A DNA stretch of 64,000 bases from Phoronis australis (Eukaryota > Animalia > Phoronida). This document shows positions 1,168-56,705 of this stretch, in pieces. Made by a program: the position numbers and the translations under genes. The stretch is taken from positions 1-64,000 of the forward strand of contig NMRA01000822.1 of assembly GCA_002633005.1 (NCBI GenBank), read 5' to 3'. Each line of letters starts with the position of its first letter. Position 1 is the first letter of the stretch. The notes under the pieces are model-generated. The model saw only the letters and a program-made list of their open reading frames with translations. It ran no database searches and was not told where the DNA came from.

Positions 1168-3568
1168 TAAAATACAGTCTAAATTTGATCAAATCATAAA
1201 ATACAGTCTAAATTTGATCAAATCATAAAATACAGTCTAAATTTGATCAAATCATAAAATACAGTCTAAATTTGATCAAATCATAAAATACAGTCTAAAT
1301 TTGATCAAATCATAAAATACAGTCTAAATTTGATCAAATCATAAAATACAGTCTAAATTTGATCAAATCATAAAATACAGTCTAAATTTGATCAAATCAT
1401 AAAATACAGTCTAAATTTGATCAAATCATAAAATACAGTCTAAATTTGATCAAATCATAAAATACAGTCTAAATTTGATCAAATCATAAAATACAGTCTA
1501 AATTTGATCAAATCATAAAATACAGTCTAAATTTGATCAAATCATAAAATACAGTCTAAATTTGATCAAATCATAAAATACAGTCTAAATTTGATCAAAT
1601 CATAAAATACAGTCTAAATTTGATCAAATCATAAAATACAGTCTAAATTTGATCAAATCATAAAATACAGTCTAAATTTGATCAAATCATAAAATACAGT
1701 CTAAATTTGATCAAATCATAAAATACAGTCTAAATTTGATCAAATCATAAAATACAGTCTAAATTTGATCAAATCATAAAATACAGTCTAAATTTGATCA
1801 AATCATAAAATACAGTCTAAATTTGATCAAATCATAAAATACAGTCTAAATTTGATCAAATCATAAAATACAGTCTAAATTTGATCAAATCATAAAATAC
1901 AGTCTAAATTTGATCAAATCATAAAATACAGTCTAAATTTGATCAAATCATAAAATACAGTCTAAATTTGATCAAATCATAAAATACAGTCTAAATTTGA
2001 TCAAATCATAAAATACAGTCTAAATTTGATCAAATCATAAAATACAGTCTAAATTTGATCAAATCATAAAATACAGTCTAAATTTGATCAAATCATAAAA
2101 TACAGTCTAAATTTGATCAAATCATAAAATACAGTCTAAATTTGATCAAATCATAAAATACAGTCTAAATTTGATCAAATCATAAAATACAGTCTAAATT
2201 TGATCAAATCATAAAATACAGTCTAAATTTGATCAAATCATAAAATACAGTCTAAATTTGATCAAATCATAAAATACAGTCTAAATTTGATCAAATCATA
2301 AAATACAGTCTAAATTTGATCAAATCATAAAATACAGTCTAAATTTGATCAAATCATAAAATACAGTCTAAATTTGATCAAATCATAAAATACAGTCTAA
2401 ATTTGATCAAATCATAAAATACAGTCTAAATTTGATCAAATCATAAAATACAGTCTAAATTTGATCAAATCATAAAATACAGTCTAAATTTGATCAAATC
2501 ATAAAATACAGTCTAAATTTGATCAAATCATAAAATACAGTCTAAATTTGATCAAATCATAAAATACAGTCTAAATTTGATCAAATCATAAAATACAGTC
2601 TAAATTTGATCAAATCATAAAATACAGTCTAAATTTGATCAAATCATAAAATACAGTCTAAATTTGATCAAATCATAAAATACAGTCTAAATTTGATCAA
2701 ATCATAAAATACAGTCTAAATTTGATCAAATCATAAAATACAGTCTAAATTTGATCAAATCATAAAATACAGTCTAAATTTGATCAAATCATAAAATACA
2801 GTCTAAATTTGATCAAATCATAAAATACAGTCTAAATTTGATCAAATCATAAAATACAGTCTAAATTTGATCAAATCATAAAATACAGTCTAAATTTGAT
2901 CAAATCATAAAATACAGTCTAAATTTGATCAAATCATAAAATACAGTCTAAATTTGATCAAATCATAAAATACAGTCTAAATTTGATCAAATCATAAAAT
3001 ACAGTCTAAATTTGATCAAATCATAAAATACAGTCTAAATTTGATCAAATCATAAAATACAGTCTAAATTTGATCAAATCATAAAATACAGTCTAAATTT
3101 GATCAAATCATAAAATACAGTCTAAATTTGATCAAATCATAAAATACAGTCTAAATTTGATCAAATCATAAAATACAGTCTAAATTTGATCAAATCATAA
3201 AATACAGTCTAAATTTGATCAAATCATAAAATACAGTCTAAATTTGATCAAATCATAAAATACAGTCTAAATTTGATCAAATCATAAAATACAGTCTAAA
3301 TTTGATCAAATCATAAAATACAGTCTAAATTTGATCAAATCATAAAATACAGTCTAAATTTGATCAAATCATAAAATACAGTCTAAATTTGATCAAATCA
3401 TAAAATACAGTCTAAATTTGATCAAATCATAAAATACAGTCTAAATTTGATCAAATCATAAAATACAGTCTAAATTTGATCAAATCATAAAATACAGTCT
3501 AAATTTGATCAAATCATAAAATACAGTCTAAATTTGATCAAATCATAAAATACAGTCTAAATTTGATC
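1168..3568. repeat. 29-bp tandem satellite, about 83 apparently identical copies, ending at an N
   Basis: Unit AAAATACAGTCTAAATTTGATCAAATCAT, no spacers; contains the 12-bp palindrome ATTTGATCAAAT; truncated by N at 3569. Confidence 0.98.
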
Positions 3569-15200: not shown

Positions 15201-17464
15201 TTAATTTTCTGTTCTGTCATGGATTTTATTAGTATTTTCTTGTTGATGATGTATTTTGTCCCTTCCGTTGTGTCCTAGAGATTTTCTCGGCTGAGGCCTG
15301 GCATACAGGGGGCAGGAAGGCGACTAGTCAGGGGACGTGAATTTTAGTCAATATTAGTGACTGCATGCTGATGTTGGGATGACCAACGGACTCGTTAGGG
15401 AAGCCTATGGAACTGTTTTAACATTAAAATGACTGAAAACTAGGAAGAACACCATATTCATTAGTACCAGTCGACAATACGTACGCGTTTAGTTTTTTTG
15501 TACGTGATCACTTCAATGTATTCTCTTACTTAGATCCGGTCAGGCTTCCTCAAGCGGGTTTTGACGTAAAACCTGACATTATGCTAGTTGTAAATTTATA
15601 ACACGAAAAACAATACCACGAGACCATTCCAGCTTTTAATAATTAGTTTTCTTCCTTGAGCTAACTGATGGTCTTGTCACCTAAAGACGTAGTATACAGG
15701 AACAGCGACCGTCAGAGGGCACCACCTGACGGCGATGCAATAACCCGGGAGAGGTACATAATTATTAATTTTTGAATTTGACTGCAGTTATTTGCAGTTA
15801 TTTGTTAGAAGCATCGGTAGCAAGCGGGTTGGCTCGGATTCCTGCTGTGGTTATAGTTGGTACAATGAATCTCGCTTTCCTTGCACCTGCAAGGAGTTGT
15901 GTAGGCTATAACTCGATTTCCAAGCACTTTCTTTGAACACACATTTGGAAAATCGCCAGAGCAATATGAGTCATTGCTACAAATAAAAGCGCGTGACGCT
16001 GTTAGCGCAGACAACGAAGGTATTTGATAGCAGTCGGACGTGTCGACCGAGCTCTCTGTTCAGCGTTAGGCGGGAAACTGCTGACACTCGTTTCGTTTCA
16101 GTAAGTTTACGCTATCACTAATCTGAAATGAAAGTTTGTAAAGATTAAGTTTGAATCATGTTATCATCCACGATACTGGTTTAAGCCGCACCGATCTTGA
16201 GACTTCTATTTTGGAATCAACTGAGGAACAATGTTGCAGAGGAACGCGTACGCGTTGCCCCTAGGTGTTGTATAGGCATATATAGAAATGTTTGTTGAAG
16301 AATGCTGTCAAGGTTTTTGAAAAGTACTGTAGAATGTTCCTTTCGGAGTTGTATATCGTGTATAACAATGTCTTTTGATAAACGAAGTAAGAGTGTGAAT
16401 TTCATGTGTTGCGTCTTTCTACATGGGTCATGGTAGACCCTATTAATTTTGTACTTTAATAAGTAACTAGTACATGTAAGCCTACTTGTGACAACTTGTG
16501 TTAATGTTGTTTTCTTGTCCTATTTTCCTGTACCGATGCATAGTAAACATTTTATTTAGTTGCTTACTTTTTAAGCCTTATTACAAACTAGCTAGCGTTG
16601 GTGTAAAGCTGTTTGTCTTCATAGTGCTAGTTGTCTTGGTGGCTAGCTGTAACTCTGTGTTCATTTCCTTCCAACTCAAACACATTTTTTTTCAAATCCA
16701 AGGAATATTACAGAGTACCCCAGAAGTGACTGAACAAATTTACGTGCAAATTAAAGATATTACACTTTCTGCACTGTTCTTCAAAATACTGTTAGGTATT
16801 GATTTAAAATGTTCCACTTTTGCATCAGGGACTGTCAAAAATAGGGCGGATTTTAGTGAAAAAATCAAAGTTACATCTAACGAAAAGGAATTGATAATTT
16901 AGAAAATAACTATGACAAAGATTTTGAGATTTTATTTGTAGCATTTACATCATACTAAATTTAATCATGTAATTGATCTCGTGGTTTTGCTTTGAATGCA
17001 CTTCCCTTTTGTTCAAAATTTTACGATAACAGCATACTAATCACTTGAGCTTATTAATGGGAGGTTGGTTTAAAGTCAGCTACTAACTTCTAGGTAAATT
17101 CTGCTTTCAGAAAAAATATACTTTCGCTGAGAGTTAAGTTCTATAGTTGTACATATATTTTGCTAAGTGTACAGATTTGTCAATAAGGTCGTATATAACC
17201 TTAAAATGGTTGTTGTTAAACGTTAATAAGAAGGAATACAAAAAGCAGTCGACGTTTTGCTCTGATAAAAAACCGCAGAAGTTGAATTTGAATTAACTTG
17301 CCTAGGACTATTTTAGTTCCATGTACCACGAAGTAAATGACTTTTGATAAGGATAAGCCCCAGTTTAATGTCTATCGGTTATCAAAGGTTAGTTCATTGA
17401 AAAAACACCGGTATGATGCTGAAATATGTCTTGAGTGATTAAAATTATTTTCTGTCTGCAGGAC

Positions 17465-19258
17465 ATGGCGTCGAACGATCCAGTTGTCCAGCTACGTCGA
17501 CTGGTAGAGTGCCCCGTGTGTTTTGAACGATCCAGTGACCAGAGGGTTTTGCCATGTCTTCACTCATTCTGCGAAAAATGCTTGAACAGTCACATGGCAG
17601 AACAGGGGCAAAGTGGTGAATTTCCATGTCCACTGTGCAAAACAAAATTTGCTGTTCCAAGAGAAGGTGCTAGTGGCTTCAAGCATAATTTTTTTCATGC
17701 CGGTATCTGTGACATTGTTTCGAATTATGACAGCATGAATAAAATGCATTGTTCAGCTCATGAAGACCGGCTTTTGGAAATGTACTGTGAACAGTGCAAG
17801 GTGGCCATATGTTCACGATGCGCAACTTCAAGTCATAAGCGACACGATCTGAAAGATTTAGACGTTGCTGCAAAAGACGCCATTGAGGTGATGCAAGATT
17901 TGTTGAAACCTTGGCGAGATGTTACGCAGCACTGGGAAATGTTGCGCAATAAACGACAGCAAGTTGCACAAAGTTATGCCCAGCAACAAAAAGCTTGTAA
18001 GAATGAGATAAAACGTGTATACAGCGATTTCCTGGCAGAGATCACTCGTCAAGTCAAAGTTAATGAAGAGAAAGCTATTGCTGAGTTGGAAAAACAAGTA
18101 GAGGCGGCAAGAAAACAGGCAGAAGCTGCTTGTGATGAGGCTGAACTGAACAGGGCGAAGTTTGCTAGCGTATATGATTATGTAAATAATGTTCTTGAGT
18201 CGTGTCATGACAATGAGAAACTGCAACAATTTAATGAGATTAAGTCTCTTCTTAAAAACTTGAATATTGATCAAATCCAGAAGCGGGTTGAAAAATCAGT
18301 CTTTGAAATACAACCTGCGACAATTGCAGTTCCAAATGTAGCTGTGAATATTATGAGAAAAATGGAAGACGAAAATATTTCATCCAATTTTTTTGAAAAT
18401 TTTGCCTCAGTTGTTGCAGTTTCCAGTAAATCACCTGTCCACCGTGTGACCCCTCAACTGACTGTTAAACATGTTCAACTTGAGCGGAGATTTAGCAGTC
18501 TGCTTGAGGGGGAGGGGGGAGGCAGTTGTTTGGGACTGGCAGTGGGTGATGGGGTGGTGGTTGTAACGGACAGTAAGAACAAGAATGTCAAGGTGTTTGA
18601 TAAAAACACCTTGACATTCAAATTCACGTTAAACACCGCCCAGCACCAACTGCAGAACCCTTCTGATGTGACATGTAATAGACTTGGTGAGATCTTCATC
18701 ACCGACCGCGACATTCACGGTGTTGTCAAGTATGACGCCAGAGGTCAACTGGTGAAGGCCTACCCAGGTGTGTATAAAGGTGAGGGGTGTATTACATGTC
18801 ACACCGACCAGCTGATAGTGACGGATACACAGGGTGGACGGGTGTTATACAGTGACTTTGATTGTGAGGTCCATCATCAAATAGACGCCCGCTCCCTGGG
18901 TCTGAGTGAGTTCTCACCATACTATATATGTGTGGATGAGAACACTGGACATGTGGTGGTGAGCCAGGACTACCCCCCACGTGTGTACGTGATTGACCCC
19001 AGACAGCCGGCCGTTATACACACATTCAGTGATGGACTGTGTGTGCCGTGCGGTGTGTGTGTGGATCAGTTCGGCCACATTCTCCTGGCTGACTGGGGCA
19101 TGTTCAAACACTGTATCCATCTATTGACCCCTGCACGTGCACACGTGATCGCCACGAAGGATGATGTCTGCAGGCCTACAGCCATATGTCCATCACGCCC
19201 AGGGAAGATGTATGTACTGGAGCAGGGAGGTGGTGTGAAGGAGTTTAGTTATCTGTGA
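17465..19258 (+). CDS. TRIM-NHL family E3 ubiquitin ligase (RING, B-box2, coiled coil, NHL beta-propeller), 597 aa, single coding exon
   Basis: RING CPVC..CLHSFCEKC..CPLC; B-box CSAH..YCEQC..ICSRC..HKRH; heptad-rich helical region; NHL repeats (GLAVGDG-VVVTD, PSDVTCN-GEIFITD, PCGVCVDQFGHILLAD). Acceptor tttctgtctgcAG at 17460-17461 just before GACATGG, so the real start is ATG 17465, not GTG 17435. Confidence 0.93.
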   Translation: MASNDPVVQLRRLVECPVCFERSSDQRVLPCLHSFCEKCLNSHMAEQGQSGEFPCPLCKTKFAVPREGASGFKHNFFHAGICDIVSNYDSMNKMHCSAHEDRLLEMYCEQCKVAICSRCATSSHKRHDLKDLDVAAKDAIEVMQDLLKPWRDVTQHWEMLRNKRQQVAQSYAQQQKACKNEIKRVYSDFLAEITRQVKVNEEKAIAELEKQVEAARKQAEAACDEAELNRAKFASVYDYVNNVLESCHDNEKLQQFNEIKSLLKNLNIDQIQKRVEKSVFEIQPATIAVPNVAVNIMRKMEDENISSNFFENFASVVAVSSKSPVHRVTPQLTVKHVQLERRFSSLLEGEGGGSCLGLAVGDGVVVVTDSKNKNVKVFDKNTLTFKFTLNTAQHQLQNPSDVTCNRLGEIFITDRDIHGVVKYDARGQLVKAYPGVYKGEGCITCHTDQLIVTDTQGGRVLYSDFDCEVHHQIDARSLGLSEFSPYYICVDENTGHVVVSQDYPPRVYVIDPRQPAVIHTFSDGLCVPCGVCVDQFGHILLADWGMFKHCIHLLTPARAHVIATKDDVCRPTAICPSRPGKMYVLEQGGGVKEFSYL

Positions 19259-39900: not shown

Positions 39901-41411
39901 CGTACCCAGACTAAACCACGGTCAGCATCGAAAAGGAAAAACACTAAAGGTTGCACCGTGAAATAGTATCGGCAAATCAGAACGGAGAAGTCCTTAAAAT
40001 GACCAATTTTTTTCGACTAAAAGCTTTCACCACTATAGTGCTTTTGGGGCAGCAAACTGATCAACACCCTTTGTGCAAATATGTTGCGAGCCGAAGAAGT
40101 GACGATATCGATACCACCCACTCCAGGTTATGAGCTGCTTCAGATGTCAACAACTTCCTGGACACCATCTCTTCCAGCACATCCCACGTGGTGTCAGTAC
40201 TCAACCAGAAACACGACTTGAACAACGTAACTATCAGCGTAGGCAATCTGAACATACTCTTCTTGATGTCGCGAACAGTCTCGACTGGCTTGTGGAAATT
40301 TAAAATTGGACCAAATTCCATAATTATTTCTAATAATTCTCTGAACGCTTTGAGTCTGACGCGGATATCGACTTTTGCTGATGCCCGAAAGGAGGTGAAC
40401 TTGTGTGCAAGCTCGTCTGCTTCACTACTTCCGCCAATCTTTACAACTGACGTCATGATACGATCAAAGTTATAACCCTCTTTCAGCGCAGTGTTATATT
40501 CACACAGCTGTGCCATACGCTGAGGTGTCCGGATCAGTTCACGACCTACCTTGGTTGGCCTGTCCGGTCGACCGAGAGGTGTGTTACACGCGTAAGGCGC
40601 GGCGCTGTCGAACTGAAACCCACGAACTGCAACACAGTCTATAAACCAGTTCCCATCTTCGGTGTCGTAGTCATTCAAGGATTTGATGGCCAGTGATTTA
40701 AGCAGAGTTTCCTGGATGTTCAATACGAACAAATGGACCAATCTTGCCAAATTTCTAAAATAAGCTGTGTCTTTTGATTCATCTTCTACGAGAATAGCCC
40801 ATTCGATATCCGAGAAAGGAGTCGTGTCTCCTCTCGCTAACGAACCTAGTCCTATAGCCGCGTATTCCTGGGGTGGTGTGCCAAGGATGTTTTCACTCTC
40901 AGAGATTAGATATCGAAAAAAGTCCGCCATATCGGCACTTGTTTGAGCAAAAATCGTACGCGATTTTTCATTGAATGTCTTTTCTGTAGATACCCTTTCG
41001 GTATCACTTACGTCGAGACTATAACTACTTTTGATTTCTTCCAATGATTTATCAACTGTAGCACAAGTCGTGTCTCGTATCCTGGCTAGCCTAGTCTTAA
41101 CGTCAGATTTGTAATCTAATGATGTTTTCCCCGGCTCAATAGAAAGAACCTTACAAAAAGCCAACTCAGTATTCTTTAAGTGCCCTTCAATCTCAGTCGC
41201 TAACTCAGGCGAGTGTGCTCTTAAAAGAGCAGCGTTAATGAGTGCTGACGATTTTACAAAGTTGTCCAAGTCTTTCGTCAGATACCACGCTCACAATAGA
41301 CCATTCCCATCTCCTTTAATAACTCAGCGTCTCTCTTCAGGTCATTACGTGACCCTTCCTTCAACGAGTCCGCCAGTTCTTGTTCCCTTTGATCCAGCTT
41401 CGAAATGCATT
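36908..41411 (-). pseudogene. Disrupted paralog of the nucleotidyltransferase (DUF294-like)-TPR gene, main exon (about 1450-1500 codons if repaired)
   Basis: ORFs 40061-41269, 39522-39956, 38935-39525 and 36908-39010 are colinear with the 1130-aa ORF. Lesions relative to the intact copy: 1-bp deletion at about 41281, 10-bp deletion at about 40064, in-frame TAG at 40017-40019, frameshift at about 38990. Acceptor ttttAG at 41412-41413 is at the same position as in the paralog. Confidence 0.85.
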
Positions 41412-42440: not shown

Positions 42441-42465
42441 CATCGTTTTGAATGTCTCCCGACAT
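42441..42465 (-). pseudogene. First coding exon of the disrupted NTase-TPR copy (MSGDIQND plus 1 nt)
   Basis: GACGACACA-ATG, 25 nt, then GTAAGT donor; phase 1 matches the acceptor at 41411; homologous to 56681-56705. Confidence 0.8.
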
Positions 42466-47672: not shown

Positions 47673-50600
47673 CTATCTCACTACGCTTGCCGTACCCGAA
47701 CGCCCCCGATTTCGTATTTTACACTGCACGCGATTCAGTCTGTGTCTGCTTGCAAGGCACTCTGGGTGGCTCTGGTCACCGTGAAGTCTCTGTCTCATAT
47801 TTAGCGCATCTGTGTGAAACGTCACGGCCAAGTCAAGCTGACCTAACCTAGCACGAGCCATTCCAAGATTATTCAGTGTTATAGCAATTCCTAGGTGGTC
47901 GCGTTCGCCAAGGAGTCTGCGTTTCACTTTCAGCGAGTCCATCAAGAATTGACAGGCGCGTTCCTCACGTTTCATCATGATGTACACCGCTCCAATATTG
48001 GTCAAGCATATTCCAATCAAATTATCACATAATCCACGCTCCATTCTTGCCAACTTCAGGGCACGTTTAAGCTTGCCCATTGCTTTTTTTTGCCTTCTAA
48101 TCTTGGCGTATATAATCGCGATTTCCAGGGTATATTTAGCGGCATAAAAATTGTTTTTAGCAACTTCAACCTCCTGTATTGCTTGTTCGCCATACTTTAA
48201 GGCTGCATCCCACTCCTTCATAGCTACATGCACGTGCATGATGGCGTTTAAGCAAATCGAGATGTTCAGATTATTGCGACGTCTGTTTACACTTCGATGC
48301 ATTTCCAGCGATTCTCGTTGGTATGCTAGAGATTTCGTGTACTCTCCCATATCACAATATATTTTTCCGATATTCCACAGACTCACAGCAATACTTTGAG
48401 AACTATTATTGTGAAATTTTTGTTTCATTTCATGTGCCCTCAACTGATACCTCAAAGCTTGCTCTGCCTTTCCTAAAAAGCTCAAAGCTATGCCCACAAA
48501 ACACATGATATCAGCAACAATTACTGGATTAACGTTTTCATCCGTTAGTGCTTTTTCCAAGTCCAGTGGATTATTTGGGTATTGTACATTTGTGTATGGC
48601 CACAACCAGCCTTCGCTCCTGCTGCGCTCAATGAAGGCAACGCACGTGTCATAATCACTTAGTTCCCTCCTGAAAAGTTCTGTCCTTCCAATGCAACCCA
48701 TTAATGCTGCAATTTTCGGATGCTCTCTGGTATAAAATCTTTTCAGAATTTCCAGCTGTTGTGAAAAATAATCCAAAGACAAACCTGTAGCAAATAAGTT
48801 AAAGTACACAACAGCAATATTTTCAAACAGGGGCAACACGTCGGGATGAATACCCCTTCCGTGTAATCTTTTAGACATTTCTATTGCGTCTTTGCAGTAT
48901 CTTAGCGCTTCGCCAAAATCTCCCGCCGATATATAAATATTTCCCCTGGTGCCGATTATATACAGTATGTTAGGATTGTCACAGTCACCATATACTTTCC
49001 TTGCCATATTTAGCGCAGCATCAGAGTATTGAAGAGCTTTCCAAAATTCGCCTGTTTCTGAGTGCACTGTAGCAATATCATTCAGGACTACAAGAACATC
49101 TTCACAGTCTGCGTCTCCATGTAAAACTTTCAAGGAAGACAACGCCGCCATTAAGTATTTAAGAGCTTCGTCATACTTATGCAAGTTGAGATACAAACAT
49201 CCCACTAATACAACGCATTCAGACACTTTCTTTTCTCTACAGTGACAAGTTGAACACATCTCTAGCGCCAATTCCGAATATTTTAGCGCCAGGTCATACT
49301 CTCCTTCTAAACGATACGTCCAAGATATAACAATGAAGCACTCTTGAACTTCTTGATCTGTCACATCATACATCAACATTTCGTCTTTGTAGGTAAATTT
49401 CTTGATGTTTGTATTGGTGTCAACGTTAAGCTTCAAATCTTTGGTGACTAAATACCTAAAAAAGTAATCATGTGCTTTCTTGTAATGACAGCTGTTTAGC
49501 TCTATCATACCCCTTACGTGACAGCTGCTTTTATAGAAGCTACCTTCATGTATGGTCACTCTTGCACCATAAACCAGGTTAATAAAATCGACACTGCCAA
49601 TGAAATCACGCAAAGGAAGGATGGTGAAGTAATATCGGCTTATAAGAACGGTCAGGTTTTCAAAATGTGTGACACTCTCTCGACCTCCGGAATGTTTGTC
49701 TTGGGGCAGCAAGCTGATCAGCTCGTCCTGACATCGCTTCTTCAAGTATGTGTTGAGTCGAAGAAGTGCAGCAATAGATACTACACACATTAAGTTGTGT
49801 GCAGCTTTGCCAGGCAATATGTTTTTAGACGCCATCTCTTTCAGTATTTCCCAAGTCGTGCAAGCATTCAAAGCAAAACATGATTTAAACAAAGTAACGA
49901 CAAGTGTGGGCAACCTAAACATACTCTTCTTGATGTCACGAATTGTTTTTGTCGGCTTGTGGTAATTTAAGACTGGCAGAAACTCATAAAATGATTGCAA
50001 AATCTCGTCACATGCTTTCTTCCGCACACTGGTATTATTTTTGACTTGGGAACGAGCCAAGTTGAATTGTCTGACGAGTTCGTCTGCTCTGCAACTTCCA
50101 CAAATCTTTACAGTTGAAGTCATGATACGATCAATGTTATAACCCTCTTTCAGCGCAGTGTTATATTCACACAGCTGTGCCATACGCTGAGGTGTCCGGA
50201 TCAGTTCACGACCTTCCTTGGCTGGCCTGTCCGGGCGACCAAGAGGTGTATTACACGCGTAAGGCGCGGCGCTGTCGAACTGAAACCCACGAGCTGCAAC
50301 ACTGTCTATATACCAGTTCCCGTCTTTGGTGTCGTAGTCATTCAGGGATTTGATGGCCAGTGATTTAAGCAGAGTTTCCTGGATGTTCAATACAAACAAA
50401 TGGACCAATCTTGCCAAATTTTTAAAATAAGCTGTGTCTTTTGATTCGTCTTCTACGAGAATAGCCCACTCGATATCAGAAAAAGGAGTCATGTCTCCTC
50501 TAGCTAGCGACCCTAGTCCTAAGACAGCATATTCTTGTGGCGGTGTACCAAGAAGTGTAATACTTTTTGACACTAAGTCTTGAAAAAAATCACTCATGTG

Positions 50601-51079
50601 CGTACTTGAGCTGGCACATATCAACCTTGTTTTTTCAATGAATTCCTTTTCTGTAGAAATTCGTACAGAATCGCAAACATCGAGACTATAGTTGCTTTCG
50701 ATTTCATTCACAATTTTCTCAACTTCACCACGAACGGTTTTTCGTATTGTACTTATCTTACATTTTATTTCAGGACTGAAGTATAAAGGCGTTTTTTCAG
50801 GGGTGAGGGACAACACTTTGAAAAACGCCAATTCAGTTTTCTTTAACTGTTTTTTAAAATTACGCGTGCGTGTTTTGTTTGTTGTTCTCAACAAAGCAGC
50901 ATTGATGAGTGCTGAAGATTGCACAAACATGCCCAAGTCTTTCGTCAGCATACCACGCTCACAATAGACCTTTCCCATCTCTTTTAGTATCCCAGCATCC
51001 CTCTCCAGATCATCACGTGACCCATTCTTGAGCGAGTCCGCCAGAGCTTGCTCCCTTTCGTCCAAGGTCGAAAGCCCGT
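47673..51079 (-). CDS. Main exon of an intact nucleotidyltransferase (Pol-beta fold, GlnD/GlnE/DUF294-like) + DUF294_C-like helical domain + TPR-repeat protein; 1143 aa with exon 1
   Basis: Uninterrupted 3.4-kb frame; NTase signature YAVLGLGSLARGDMTPFSDIEWAILV (hGS..DhE); helical domain DIKK..FR.P....TTWEILKEM...AAHNL....LLRL; about 10-12 TPRs of roughly 42 aa (e.g. HLGIAITLNNLGMARARLGQLDLAVTFHTDALNMRQRLHG). Acceptor tttcAG at 51080-51081. Confidence 0.9.
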
Positions 51080-51845
51080 CTGAAACCCATGGGAAATGAT
51101 ATTAGGAACGCAATACGTCAACAAAATGTGGTAACATGATCGTGACTAACTTTTGTTAAACTGTTCAACAAAAACAGGATAAAACAAACCAACCGCTCTT
51201 CAAATACATTGGGATGAGTCGTTGGTTCATCGCCAGGTTCTGACATAGAACCAGAACAATTCCACCTCAAGACCCCAGTTCCGCCGGATGATGTGAATTC
51301 ACGATTTCTACAGCTTTATAGGAATGAGTTAAATAAAGGTTGGAAAATTGCATGTCGCCATGCAGCAGTAGGCATCGTAATGTTTCTGTGTCATAAAGCA
51401 CACCTTAACTGTGATTAGGTAAAACAAAATGCTATACACCTTCAATAGTCCGTTCAGTTAACAGAGGCAAAAGTTGGAACTACGTTAATCGGCATATTCT
51501 CAGACTACACGTTGGAAATGGGTAAATTAAAGATTTTCATGTTATACATTGCCAAACCTTCACTCGAAGATGTTTGACTGGGATGTCACCTTGGTGACTT
51601 GAGAAAATGTTATGCGCATGTTGCGTAAAGTCGACAAACAAACAATGAGCTTTACCCGACAACGTTTTGTTTGTCGGGTAAAATGGCGGCTTGGAAACGA
51701 GGGTGTGTCAGGCATGCCGCGTTCTGATTGGTCAGTTAAGCCGTCACTCAAAATCCTGGCGATAGGTCAATTGAGTACCAGCGTCAGTTTTTGTTAGAAT
51801 GCGATGATTCTAGACACAAATTTAATTTGCCTATTGTTTACTTCC

Positions 51846-52659
51846 TGTCAGAATAAATTTTTATTAAGTAATTAGTAAGAATAGATCCATTTTAATTTTC
51901 CCAAAAAATGTGCATATGTACTTTTAAATCATGGGGACAGACTTGTTGACATGTACTTTAACGTCAAAATCTATTTTTAGGTGGTGTTTACAACTTTGGG
52001 TTCTGGGGTCAAAGTACTCTAATGATTCTACAAAATTCTGAGAACAAATTTTAACAGCCAATAATATGAGTGGATATGATCATTTGGTTTTTATTAGCCA
52101 ATCACTAAATAAGTAGAATGTTATATTATGGGCTGAAATCAACAAGATAATTAGATGCGCTATAGTAGTTGAAGCATAAAGACTTGCTACGGTGTACAGA
52201 AGCAATTGTACGACAGAGCCATCTCGTGGAAGATTCTAGAAAGGATCTTAGCAAGGGCAAGGGTTAACGAATAGGAAGTTAACTAAGAGCTTGTCACTTG
52301 CATTGTGGGTAGTAAGATACTACCTGAAGTGTTGCGTCATTAGCCAGAGACTGTGACCAGCAAGAAGAATCGCGGGTAGAAGAAATTGCCTGCAAGTGTT
52401 GCATCACCAGAGACGGTGACCAGCAAGTACACTGTCGCTATACAGTGTGTGTAGTGGAGAGTCCTACCTTGGATAGCAGATAAGACATTTGATTGTTACT
52501 CTTTGTAGTTGATTACTTAATTAACAATAGGTTTCATTTGTCTAATTAGGGATTATCATATAATAAATTAATTACTGGATTTGATTATTCACTCTCCATC
52601 TACGCACAATCTCAGAGCATAGCTACTTTTTAAACAAATCCACAGTCAATCGCCTGACA
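51846..52659 (+). mobile_element. Probable solo LTR (814 bp) in the NTase-TPR intron
   Basis: Termini TGTCAG ... CTGACA, flanks CTTCC / CCTCC (5-bp TSD with one mismatch), AATAAA at 52562. Confidence 0.65.
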
Positions 52660-53583
52660 CCTCCAAAAGATAGATCATGAAAGCGAAGGACAACTGCATA
52701 TTACGTAATATTGTAAAATTCCGTCTAATGTTATGTAGGATCTTATTGGCAAGCCTGTGTGTTTATCCAAATCTCTACTAAACTATTAAAACAGTAAAAT
52801 ATAAATCCTCTGAAAGTGGTGAGGCTGTGGAGTGTGAATTGTTATCAATCTGCCACTAATTTAGCAAAATGAAGCTACATCAATGGCAAAACCTCGGTAT
52901 CAACCACGTGACCAAATTTAGTGTTACAGTTTTCTAAATTATCACTTTATTTTTGTTTTAATCATTTTTTATGTTTTTATAGAAATGTTTTAAGTCCAAT
53001 TTGTGATAGTCCGTCTAACAAAAGTGAAACATTTGAAAAGAATTCCTAACACAGCGTTGTAGTGGACAATGCGTGAATGGTCATAAGAATCCCATCTCTG
53101 CTATTTATTGCTCCTGAGTTGGCCAAATTTTTGACATTTTCTAGGGTCCTACATACATTTAATCTTGATGACGAGAAAAGATCACTTTTCTTGAATGTTG
53201 AACCTTAGACGATTGTATACTGCTATGTATGTGATATAAAGGGCCGATGGAAGTCAGTAGCTACTGTATATCAGCATGTCAGTTTTTCCCCACGTTATCA
53301 TTAATTTCAAATACCATTCACCACCTATTGTCTCCTTCATTCACCCTTTCCCCACAACCGCATTCCTCCCTCCACGGATGTCGGTGTTGCATTCACCAAC
53401 TCCTCCGGCGTCAGTATTGCCTGCGCCTCCTTCCCCCGGGGGTTATCATCGCCTCAACCCCCCCCCCACTCACATCCTAGTGTTAGTATTGCCTGCGCCT
53501 CTTCCCTACCCGGGTTATCATCGCCCCACCTCCCCACTCACATCCCTGTCACCTTATCCCATTATTGCATATCTTGTACATAC

Positions 53584-54450
53584 TGTTGATGCCGTGCATC
53601 ATTTTTTGTCATTGGTTGTTGTATTTCATTTACGTGTTACGCTGTTTATTTTCTTTCTAGGTAGCAGGACACCTTTCACCGCTGTGATTTGGTTTCTTTT
53701 AGCAAGCAGGTTCTTTCCAGTGGTTACAATAGCATTTGCATAGTCGAATAGTAGCTTGACCGGCTGGCCATTGTTACGTATTAGCATCTGTATGTTACGC
53801 GGGTTTTGGTGACTAGCGTTTCATGAGTTTACCGGCATTCGTTGACAAGATCTGTAACACGAATTATGTGTTTTCCTCGGTTGCTGGAACTTTTATATTA
53901 AGCACAGACTGTTAGCCAAACTGTTGTAAGTACTGAGTATTATGGCATAGCATGTTGTACTTGTGTGTATCTACTAGCTGAGTTTAGAGCGTACTTAGTT
54001 GTTGTTGTTTGACGTATAGTTTCCTTCAGCTGCTTGTTTGGCGTGTATGTTGCGCGGTACCCGGTTCATAGAATAAATAGTTACGGGTCGCAGTTAGGCA
54101 ATTGTTTGTGTACGGTAATGGTTCCCAGTTGTAGAATAGATAGTACGGGTTCCAGTTAATTATGTATTGTTAGCGAGGTAGTATTTGCCTGTCATAGAGT
54201 CATTCGCGCGAGTCTTTCTAACGCTCTGATATAGTGCTTGTTAATTTACGCTTGCTTGCCGAATACTCAGACTGTGTGTGTTTTTTCTTTATTGTAGATA
54301 ACCACGCTTTTCCGGTTTCTCCTTTTCAACGCTTGTTCAGTTTCTCATTCAACGCTTGTTCGGAAACTTTCCATCGCTTGCAACTAAATAATAAAGTGTG
54401 TTATGCAAACGGCTTCTTTTAATTTATCCCTGTAGCCAGACGCGGCTACA
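53584..54450 (+). mobile_element. Probable solo LTR (867 bp) in the NTase-TPR intron
   Basis: TG...CA termini (TGTTG ... CTACA), perfect 5-bp TSD CATAC (53579-53583 and 54451-54455), AATAAA at 54390. Confidence 0.7.
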
Positions 54451-56680
54451 CATACTCTTGTTATTTATGTTACTTTACTAGTCCATCTCTACTCCTCGTT
54501 AGTCATTTTGTTAGACCACTATATATTTTATGTACATATTATGTTTAAACTATTACTTAACATCATCTAGTCGACATGATCTGTTAGCTCAACTCTAACC
54601 TTACTCTGCGTTAGCCATTTTATTAAGCAACTGTATAGGATGTGTGAACGTGTTTAGTTTTAACTTGTTCCTCTACCTCAACTAGCCTAGTTTGTCCGTT
54701 AGCCATTTTGTTTCTCTTATATTTTTAGTTGCTAGCTTACATTTTATTTTGTTGTATCATTTATAATATTCTTTACAACTGCCCTTCGTTTGTCTAAGTA
54801 TGCAGTTATTCCTGTCACGACACAGGGTGAGACAACAACTGGCATTTGTTCAAGTCTCGGGCAATCGCACCTCCCCCTCCAGTTTGGCACCCGGAGTTAG
54901 GGTTGGGTATCCGGTTGACACTACTTGCACGCAGTCGGGCACATCGTTCATTTCATTCCTCTCATTTTGTGCGTCCCTGCGGATACCCTTGAGCTGTCTT
55001 ACAACATATCCTGCGGTGCTTTTCTATTGTCCATCTTACCATAAATTATCCTTTTTTACTTTACTTATGTTTATTCACTACCTATTACTTGTAATTGTAT
55101 TAGTCGTAATAAATGACCTTATATCGTCTATCTCCGTCTTCTTTTCGGCTCTGGCAATGAGCTTGTGACGCAAGAACCTTTATATATTATTCGGGATATA
55201 TGTCGATCATAAATAACGATGTGTTAACATTTTTAGTTAAGTGTCTGAACTCATTTTTACCATGCAGAATGTTTCGTTATTTGTGGCACTAAATAGTTGT
55301 ACCTTCTGACACAGCACCATCTATACTGAAAAATGGCCCTATGGAAACACGAACGACAAACGAAATTCCGTGTGTGGGCATCAATGCGCATGCCTTGGTC
55401 GGAAATATACCGATCACAACGCCACCACTTGAACATGCCTTCATACACTGTACCTGTTTGAGCTTAAGCCACTGGATCGGGGTTTCTTTGACTTTGTTTA
55501 CTTCGACCACTGTCCGTTTTAATATATTGCAGCTTTTCAAGTCAAACAACATATCAATAAAATGAAAGAGGGTTTCCCAGATTTCAACCAATGGGAATAA
55601 CTGAATGTTATGACGTCGATTTCATTGCTTTAACCAATGAGAAGTCCTGTTTAACAGTATTCCACATTGCTACCTTTCGTAGCACTGCTCAATAGTGTGT
55701 AAATAGTTGTCGCTGAGTATTCTAGATGTAGGAAAATGAAATCGAATACATCTGTGTCAGTAGTGACGTCTGGGGGAAGTGGTGCCTTGAAGGTATGGTG
55801 AAGTCGATGGCGACAAGGAGGGACGCCAAATTGTATGGTTCTGGTGGGTGAATTGGCGGGTGACCGAAAATGGGATTATATTGATGGTGCGGAACTCTTG
55901 TTGACCGGAAGAGGGGGATTGATGGCCGACAAGTTGGGACGTAAATGGGTGTTATGGTGGGAGTGGCATGAACATTTAGCCAATACAAAATAAAATTCTT
56001 TCTAAGCTCATGCTGGGGTCAATCAGCTTCAAATAGTCATAGAACCACATCAACTTCACAGAAATAGTAGTTCAATTGTTAAAATGTCGTGTCATAAACT
56101 GCCATGTTTGTTAATAGATTACATACTGCATTTATCTATTATGAAGACCAAAAGAGCTCCAGAAAGTATTCTAAATGTGGACACTAGAGCAACGCAAAGC
56201 GTTGAAATGCACCCACAACTGCACTACTAACAACATTCTTCTTTTTCAACACTAATCAAAATAATATTAATGTCGTGAAAATGGTCACAAGGTGTCACAG
56301 AATATGTCCAAAAGTCATTTGACCATTTCACGGGACTCAGTGAAAAGTTCATCCCACCTATTTAGTGCATGAATAAAGTTGCAAAAAATTTGTCCCTTCA
56401 GCACACCATATCACGTGACCTGATGAATATAGGTCTGAAAAGATTTCTGACCCGGACCGGGACTAGAAACTATCACTTTCTGCTAACGTTGCAGATGCTC
56501 TATAGCCATTGAGCCGCAGTGACCACTAGTCAAACGCCCGAAATCCGACAATCAGACTTCAGTGGTGGGCATCTTACCCTTGATCCCCATTGTGAGTAAA
56601 GTTGTATGTGATTTACTGCGCCAACCTAGTTAGGAACACACTGAATGCTAGTTATGTTTCGATCCAAAGTCTTGACTTAC

Positions 56681-56705
56681 CAACACTTTGAGTAGCTCCC
56701 GCCAT
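56681..56705 (-). CDS. First coding exon of the intact NTase-TPR gene (MAGATQSV plus 1 nt)
   Basis: ACACA-ATG-G Kozak-like context, 25 nt, GTAAGT donor at 56680; joins in frame to 51079 giving MAGATQSVDGLSTLDEREQ. Exon length, donor and upstream UTR are conserved in the paralog (42441-42515). A ttccAG acceptor at about 56747 implies a further upstream non-coding exon. Confidence 0.8.

Follow-up and report, generated by a model that had tools for sequence, protein, structure and literature searches.

DrrA (SidM) and GlnE are protein AMPylases, enzymes that transfer AMP to proteins, and share the motif G-S-x10-D-x-D/E (PMC7815794, PMC8097203). DrrA, whose motif residues are numbered in PMC7815794, is switched on by the binding of Rab1 (PMC7815794), and a genome survey found DrrA-like proteins to be a great rarity, confined to Legionella pneumophila (PMC4454073). 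GlnE and GlnD are listed as bacterial only (PMC3710099, table 1). Another bacterial group, NEX2, comprises 50 Neochlamydia proteins with the layout F-box-[OTU]-DUF294-TPR (TPR, tetratricopeptide repeat); two are predicted to be secreted, yet the members tested have a working type III signal, and the available text calls their domain a putative nucleotidyltransferase with no mention of DrrA or of animal members (PMC4209131). FICD and SelO are named as eukaryotic AMPylases (PMC8097203, PMC12409994), and the TPRs of FICD hold and position BiP for AMPylation (PMC12409994). The locus described here lies in 64,000 nucleotides (nt) of Phoronis australis DNA (GenBank assembly GCA_002633005.1, contig NMRA01000822.1, positions 1 to 64,000; hereafter the window), where a gene on the minus strand encodes a protein of 1143 amino acids (aa) with an enzyme module and a TPR array.

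By fold and motif the protein is DrrA/GlnE-like, while by the tests below it is not a member of the DrrA, GlnD/GlnE, cGAS/OAS or NLR families. With moderate confidence, it is read as a DrrA/GlnE-type enzyme that AMPylates proteins; its TPR arm would serve for targeting or sensing, and it would be used in host-microbe conflict. A first-pass annotation of the sequence had proposed that the enzyme either nucleotidylates a target or makes a nucleotide messenger; of the two, nucleotidylation of a protein is preferred to a cGAS-like messenger, because DrrA and GlnE, the closest relatives of solved structure, are protein AMPylases, and the second half of that proposal is now the less likely one. The gene and its protein are laid out as follows.

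56681 to 56705, minus strand: coding part of exon 1, with the start codon, 8 codons plus 1 nt and a phase-1 GT donor (junction reads; the same 25-nt exon in the paralog)
51080 to 56680, minus strand: intron of 5601 nt, GT-AG, with repeats that draw reads from both strands (RNA read tables)
47673 to 51079, minus strand: coding part of exon 2, open to the stop codon (frame and sense-strand RNA depth)
50781 to 51077, minus strand: N-terminal TPR-like unit, aa 10-108, two helical hairpins (model; Z 8-10 to TPR proteins)
50070 to 50780, minus strand: Pol-beta-type nucleotidyltransferase lobe, DrrA/GlnE-like, aa 109-345 (Pfam, model, profile and fold matches)
50466 to 50522, minus strand: catalytic motif G198-S199-x10-D210-x-E212, aa 195-213 (LGLGSLARGDMTPFSDIEW), aligned with G98-S99...D110-x-D112 of DrrA
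50271 to 50291, minus strand: RGFQFDS, aa 272-278, with D277 as the candidate third metal ligand
49560 to 50042, minus strand: helical HEPN-like lobe, aa 355-515, with K392, R397 and R449 and without the RNase histidine (profile, fold matches, family alignment)
47697 to 49355, minus strand: 12 degenerate TPRs and a capping helix, aa 584-1136, units 1-6 being the most divergent among RNA reads (Pfam, model, repeat alignment, reads)

The predicted model of aa 10-540 (predicted local distance difference test, pLDDT, 88.8; predicted template modelling score, pTM, 0.90) is confident over residues 45-515, for which the AMP-transferase domain of DrrA/SidM is the best match. In the fold alignment against 48,161 representative chains DrrA comes first (Z 25.6, 327 residues, root-mean-square deviation (rmsd) 4.0) and GlnE domains follow (1v4a, Z 22.3; 3k7d, Z 21.9), with 302-327 residues aligned across these three; the best match outside DrrA and GlnE reaches Z 10.4, and the same top three are found in all three structure comparisons. 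The four Foldseek matches at E<=0.001 are DrrA (6yx5_B) and three GlnE chains, and Hailong HalB appears weakly (E 0.29). cGAS, OAS and CD-NTase are not among the fold and Foldseek matches listed, the fold list holding the best 50. A 33-row domain-only profile matches DrrA over both lobes (E 2.6e-11), with kanamycin nucleotidyltransferase next (E 0.053; fold Z ~8). The profile was needed for the DrrA match, since the N-terminal half alone, run as one sequence against the PDB, gave no match. A PDB match list obtained earlier from a TPR-bearing alignment was set aside as TPR-driven.

The Pfam match to DUF294 (26.8 bits) exceeds the cut-off of 21 and comes together with weak matches to SidM_N (18.8 bits, below its cut-off of 27), Polbeta and NTP_transf_2, plus TPR_10/12; no GEF (guanine nucleotide exchange factor) or P4M domain and no F-box is found. 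The NCBIfam model for GlnD (TIGR01693) reaches 13 bits against a cut-off of 519.4, and PADLOC gives only weak matches to PDC-S09 and PDC-M70A. The hidden Markov model and Foldseek checks agree with the first-pass proposal of a Pol-beta fold of the GlnE/DUF294 kind, and at the level of Pfam profiles its separation from Mab21/cGLR and OAS holds as well, Mab-21, OAS1_C and SMODS having no match at E<=1. The DUF294_C-like domain that it also proposed is not borne out: DUF294_C has no match at E<=1 in the window protein and scores 19.9 and 19.5 in two homologs (cut-off 22.5). The helical lobe rests on fold matches instead, residues 355-515 resembling HEPN-fold bundles (Z ~8-9.5).

Nucleotidyltransferases of the Pol-beta type carry the pattern hG[GS]x9-13Dh[DE] on the core sheet. 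The pattern is present here, with G198, S199, D210 and E212 on strands of the model. The motif noticed at first sight (aa 195-213) is thus in place, as is RGFQFDS (aa 272-278). In the profile alignment K392, R397 and T400 are paired with K241, R246 and D249 of DrrA (numbering read from the alignment); one review assigns D249 of DrrA to metal binding. Among the 416 other family domains described below, G198 is kept in 413, S199 in 405, D210 in 404, E212 in 405, D277 in 411, K392 in 407, R397 in 403 and R449 in 403, and all five catalytic residues are intact in 405 of the 418 domains, a total that takes in the window gene and its paralog. D277 adjoins a strand residue in the model and would be the third metal ligand, equivalent to D150 of DrrA, to which the DrrA alignment does not reach. 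As for the R-x4-6-H motif of HEPN RNases, no histidine follows R449, and it is present in 54 of 137 representatives.

The animal gene is real, spliced and expressed. A stop-to-stop frame of 1142 codons runs on the minus strand from 51101 to 47673; exons 56705-56681 and 51079-47673, when joined, give 3432 nt (1143 aa and the stop codon) with no internal stop and with canonical splice sites (GT donor at exon 1, AG acceptor at exon 2). Four reads with 3 different starts, from one of four same-species RNA runs, span the junction 56681/51079, which skips 5601 nt (CT..AC on the plus strand), and the intact spliced gene of 1143 aa that had been predicted is confirmed in its open frame and its junction. 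RNA cover of exon 2 is on the sense strand only in all three raw-read runs, the fourth run (contigs) giving no depth there; the mean depth is up to ~5, from 18-19% of each run sampled, and expression is low in these three runs, which have no stated challenge. Between the RNA reads and the assembly there are differences of several percent, which point to other alleles or close paralogs. Within the intron, a repeat at 51550-52650 shows high RNA depth on both strands, with a recurrent read insertion of ~33-38 nt near 52453.

The full-length model (pLDDT 86.6, pTM 0.83) shows 12 hairpins of ~42-43 aa over aa 584-1108, followed by the cap, in agreement with the 10-12 TPRs fused to the nucleotidyltransferase that were expected from the sequence; the predicted pTM hints at a fixed arrangement of TPRs and enzyme. 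The repeat length of ~42 aa given by the first-pass annotation is right, but its type HPxxAxxLNNLG suits only a few units, because the repeats are strongly degenerate (mean pairwise identity 12.5%, one NNLG). To its domain list the further TPR-like helical unit at aa 10-108 is added. No Walker A motif is present in the window protein and neither NB-ARC nor NACHT has a Pfam match at E<=1, in agreement with the absence of P-loop, NACHT and NB-ARC motifs stated at first. In the repeats of the lancelet cluster (524 units from 153 proteins, certain positions being set by the pattern used to find them) most of the variability falls on helix-A positions 6, 13, 16 and 17, with an entropy of 3.2-3.5 bits compared with ~1 for unanchored framework positions, and on position 35.

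The described systems share parts of this layout. The AMP-transferase domain of DrrA/SidM (PDB 6yx5_B, 3nku, 3l0i) has the same two-lobed fold, the motif and the C-lobe K and R (K241, R246 in DrrA), but is joined to GEF and P4M domains and not to a TPR array, and has D249 where the window protein has T400. The AT and AR domains of GlnE (GS-ATase) have the same fold and type of motif (GlnD was compared too), whereas the window protein has one enzyme module in place of the bifunctional GlnE layout. NEX2 proteins have a homologous enzyme module (E ~1e-108, EPS4 protein), C-terminal TPRs and birth-and-death evolution; they differ in being bacterial putative effectors with an F-box. FICD/HYPE and SelO catalyse the reaction that is proposed here, and FICD also combines TPRs with an AMPylase, but their folds are unrelated (Fic and pseudokinase, respectively) and neither forms a large variable family. 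With cGAS/cGLR, OAS and CD-NTase only the Pol-beta superfamily is in common: there is no profile match, and the second lobe of the window protein is HEPN-like. STAND-TPR receptors (NB-ARC/NACHT-TPR) share the 42-aa TPR class and the enzyme-plus-repeat layout, and in one bacterial relative the enzyme precedes NB-ARC, but these receptors possess a nucleoside triphosphatase (NTPase) switch that the window protein lacks.

The first homolog search returned 105 proteins, 80 of them named Branchiostoma, with other members from Paramuricea, Clavelina, Owenia, Glandiceps, Holosporaceae and Jidaibacter; later searches brought in Hydra, Neochlamydia, Ptychodera and Neptunochlamydia. Lancelets have an expanded set, and there are members in an annelid, hemichordates, a tunicate and an octocoral, a range that is a lower bound. 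Matches re-scored with the domain-only profile gave 418 related domains from invertebrates of at least four phyla and from many endosymbionts, and, the paralog apart, identity to the window domain reaches ~38% at most. A count of 366,282 matches at E<=0.001 was rejected as a family census, the alignment having carried TPR columns and the count being TPR-driven. With the lancelet expansion, the patchy distribution and a tandem copy, this is not a single-copy housekeeping ortholog set. Some animal members are labelled 'Protein-PII uridylyltransferase N-terminal domain-containing protein' in databases. One from Owenia fusiformis (P0296) has OTU, two DUF294 modules and TPRs, a set of domains that ten NEX2 members also have, with an F-box in addition.

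The literature search turned up no paper on the animal family or on the Hydra genes treated below, although supplementary architecture tables of PMC3710099, PMC8195603 and PMC3482391 could list them. The family is not described in the available text of these three papers or of PMC7815794, PMC8097203, PMC4209131, PMC12894286, PMC3417536, PMC4454073 and PMC12409994; the first-pass annotation, too, had known of no functional description in animals.

A motif-seeded scan of 185,579 prokaryote genomes yielded 55 loci, 25 of which are labelled Rickettsiaceae, Holosporaceae, Chlamydiae or Amoebophilaceae; one weak partial match is from Pyrinomonadaceae. Most of the bacterial relatives are proteins of endosymbionts, the NEX2 putative effectors among them, and outside animals these are the nearest kin, a link that the first-pass annotation did not have. 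Nine of the 55 are located on one 1.06-Mb Cytophagales chromosome (L006, L012, L014-L017, L025, L028, L039). The bacterial enzyme domains are fused to F-box, ankyrin, OTU, RickCE, methyltransferase, TIR and NB-ARC partners, and judging from such architectures the domain can occupy the effector slot of NLR-like proteins. Pfam names 7 of 50 bacterial N-terminal regions. No conserved partner gene was found among 214 neighbouring open reading frames (ORFs) of >=150 aa, the largest cluster comprising 27 ORFs from 21 loci, and on viral contigs none of 36 pattern matches was confirmed. In the bacterial protein P0120 the enzyme domain precedes NB-ARC, DUF7779 and TPRs, P0121 combines it with OTU, TIR, DUF7779 and TPRs, and P0122 with WD40 arrays; in two chlamydial members (L002:4405-5718 and L004:4570-5613) a methyltransferase domain precedes the enzyme.

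An unrooted tree was built from 44 rows of named source chosen from the 418 domains, unnamed rows being left out. Two Hydra proteins group in it with Tisiphia and Rickettsia symbiont genes (100/100), at a domain identity of 72% and 66% to the best bacterial match, and forcing these two together with the other animals is rejected (p-AU, approximately unbiased test, 2.7e-40). The Hydra copies are likely a separate capture, nested in Rickettsiaceae, by recent transfer with expansion. Three Hydra vulgaris genes with the domain (P0155, P0156, P0282) have RefSeq records on scaffolds of 45-70 Mb, and the two proteins tested are 66-72% identical to a gene of a Rickettsia insect symbiont. In a FastTree of 144 representatives two long-branch bacterial rows, both outside the 44-row tree, are placed, weakly supported, among animal rows. 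The listing of GlnD, GlnE, DUF294_C and DrrA as bacterial in a table of PMC3710099 is the reason for inferring a bacterial source, and the animal family likely descends from an endosymbiont effector. A wider proposal can be put forward tentatively, as possible though doubtful: animals would have captured a DrrA-like AMPylase effector at least twice (early, and recently in Hydra), and the captured genes would now form expanded families of single-chain sensor-enzymes, in which a microbial protein is recognised by hypervariable TPRs and either that protein or a host switch is AMPylated by the attached enzyme.

A tandem paralog of the same layout is found ~6 kb from the gene.

42441 to 42465, minus strand: coding part of paralog exon 1, the same 25-nt phase-1 exon (junction 42441/41411)
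36908 to 41411, minus strand: paralog exon 2, same layout, broken in the assembly, transcribed and spliced (sequence comparison, RNA)

Its splice junction is covered by 5 reads. In the assembly the copy is broken by a 1-nt deletion, a 10-nt deletion, an in-frame stop and a further shift, and it also has a duplication around N that looks like an assembly artefact; at the breaks the RNA has no indel rows and the depth is low. Gene and paralog share 68% identity over aa 53-458, compared with 28-33% for the TPRs. In DNA, identity is 92% for the catalytic core (50100-50550 of the window against ~40430-40880), with flanks at ~62-66%, and over aa 186-335 the rates of nonsynonymous and synonymous change (dN and dS) are 0.042 and 0.233, with a flanking dS of >1.1, so that the core has likely undergone gene conversion between the paralogs recently. 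At 92% likeness, 5 of 6 run-bins over 48666-49387 (aa 573-813) have an RNA depth of 0, and at 82% the overlapping bins have 0.5-3.1; depth lost at the stricter and regained at the looser value shows that TPRs 1-6 vary most. Among the best-supported 11 differences listed in exon 2, which fall in 9 codons, 5 change the residue and 4 are silent, too few for selection to be testable, and the one indel listed among the reads in the gene frame is in frame. The lancelet expansion, the TPR divergence, the broken tandem copy and the low dN/dS of the core are probably signs of conflict-type evolution.

If the protein is an AMPylase, D210, E212 and D277 would hold Mg2+, and G198-S199 with K392/R397 would hold the triphosphate. 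A nucleoside monophosphate, most likely AMP, would be moved onto a hydroxyl side chain, probably of tyrosine, in a substrate protein bound in the groove of the TPRs. The enzyme may also be activated when the target binds, as DrrA is by Rab1. A foreign target, from a symbiont or a pathogen, is conceivable, and so is a host switch, for instance a small GTPase. Rab1-DrrA is the precedent for such ligand gating and FICD-BiP for an adaptor role; by this analogy the TPRs could equally select the substrate instead of acting as a receptor.

Several observations weigh against the AMPylase reading and its evolutionary setting. The protein is 13% identical to DrrA, and likeness of fold in a predicted model does not show function. 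D277 is 67 residues past D210 compared with 40 in DrrA, the equivalence to D150 being unaligned. The window protein departs from the 416 family domains at the near-invariant positions 242 (G in 390, here Q), 247 (P in 364, here K), 285 (K in 384, here N, as in 9 others) and 396 (Y in 403, here F), and at the position of DrrA D249, where 100 of the 416 have D, it has T400. In the unrooted tree the 17 non-Hydra animal rows lie on one side of a branch with support 94/86, below the starred level, and the window gene and its paralog are flagged as a long-branch join. The divergent RNA reads may come from other alleles or from unseen paralogs. The low dS of the core, pointing to gene conversion, weakens the dN/dS argument. 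The four altered positions and the absence of D at the D249 position, together with the long branch and the broken sister copy, would also suit a weakened or dead enzyme that is kept as a TPR binding protein or is decaying. This is nevertheless unlikely: the three acids, the G-S pair, K392, R397 and R449 are kept, N285 recurs in other family domains, and the 1143-codon frame is open, with its one listed read indel in frame.

It is unlikely that the gene has been domesticated to regulate a host protein, in which case the TPRs would be a plain adaptor for the substrate and immunity would not be involved. Such a role agrees with the positioning of BiP by the FICD TPRs (PMC12409994), with low expression in runs without stated challenge and with the partly non-adaptive processes to which the birth-and-death evolution of NEX2 is ascribed (PMC4209131), but stable housekeeping is poorly suited by the patchy range, the lancelet expansion, the decayed tandem copy and the hypervariable TPRs with their high-entropy helix-A positions 6, 13, 16 and 17. 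We regard as quite unlikely a receptor that makes a diffusible nucleotide messenger on ligand binding by the TPRs, in the manner of cGAS, OAS or Hailong; against the Pol-beta fold, the domain sets of P0120 (NB-ARC and TPRs) and P0121 (OTU, TIR and TPRs) and the HalB match stand the missing Mab-21, OAS and SMODS matches and the four structural relatives at E<=0.001, which are all protein AMPylase domains. Nucleotidyltransferase toxins that target tRNA are known, and nucleotidylation of RNA ends or, as by aminoglycoside nucleotidyltransferases, of small molecules could be supposed from the second place of kanamycin nucleotidyltransferase in the profile search; it is improbable, the matches being far weaker, with rmsd above 6, and the groove of 12 TPR units suggesting a protein partner. 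Hardly credible at all is bacterial contamination or an unexpressed symbiont insertion: the domain is of bacterial type and nearly all the coding sequence is in one exon, but a spliceosomal intron is confirmed by RNA in both copies, the junction reads refuting this explanation, a TRIM-NHL gene and a retroelement remnant lie in the same window, and the protein groups with animal sequences.

If the AMPylase reading is correct and the protein active, it would represent a third class of animal AMPylases beside FICD and SelO, suggest a candidate biochemical activity for the NEX2 effectors and provide a clear case of a host reusing a symbiont weapon. If its sensing role is also true, it would be a type of immune receptor that needs no STAND NTPase.

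Elsewhere in the window, a single-frame RING/B-box/NHL (TRIM-NHL) gene of ~600 aa is found on the plus strand at 17435-19258, 17 kb from the paralog, and the retroelement remnant, with a weak zf-RVT match, at 29966-30403 (plus strand). An element at 35878-36660 (minus strand), without Pfam support, is presumably reverse-transcriptase-like, judged by eye. Duplicates flanking N gaps at 27424-29866 (949 bp, 97%) and 39519-39728 (110 bp, 85%) are typical of unmerged haplotypes. At 1168-3568 a 29-bp unit is repeated 82.8 times at 100% identity and ends at N, being either a satellite or an assembly artefact.

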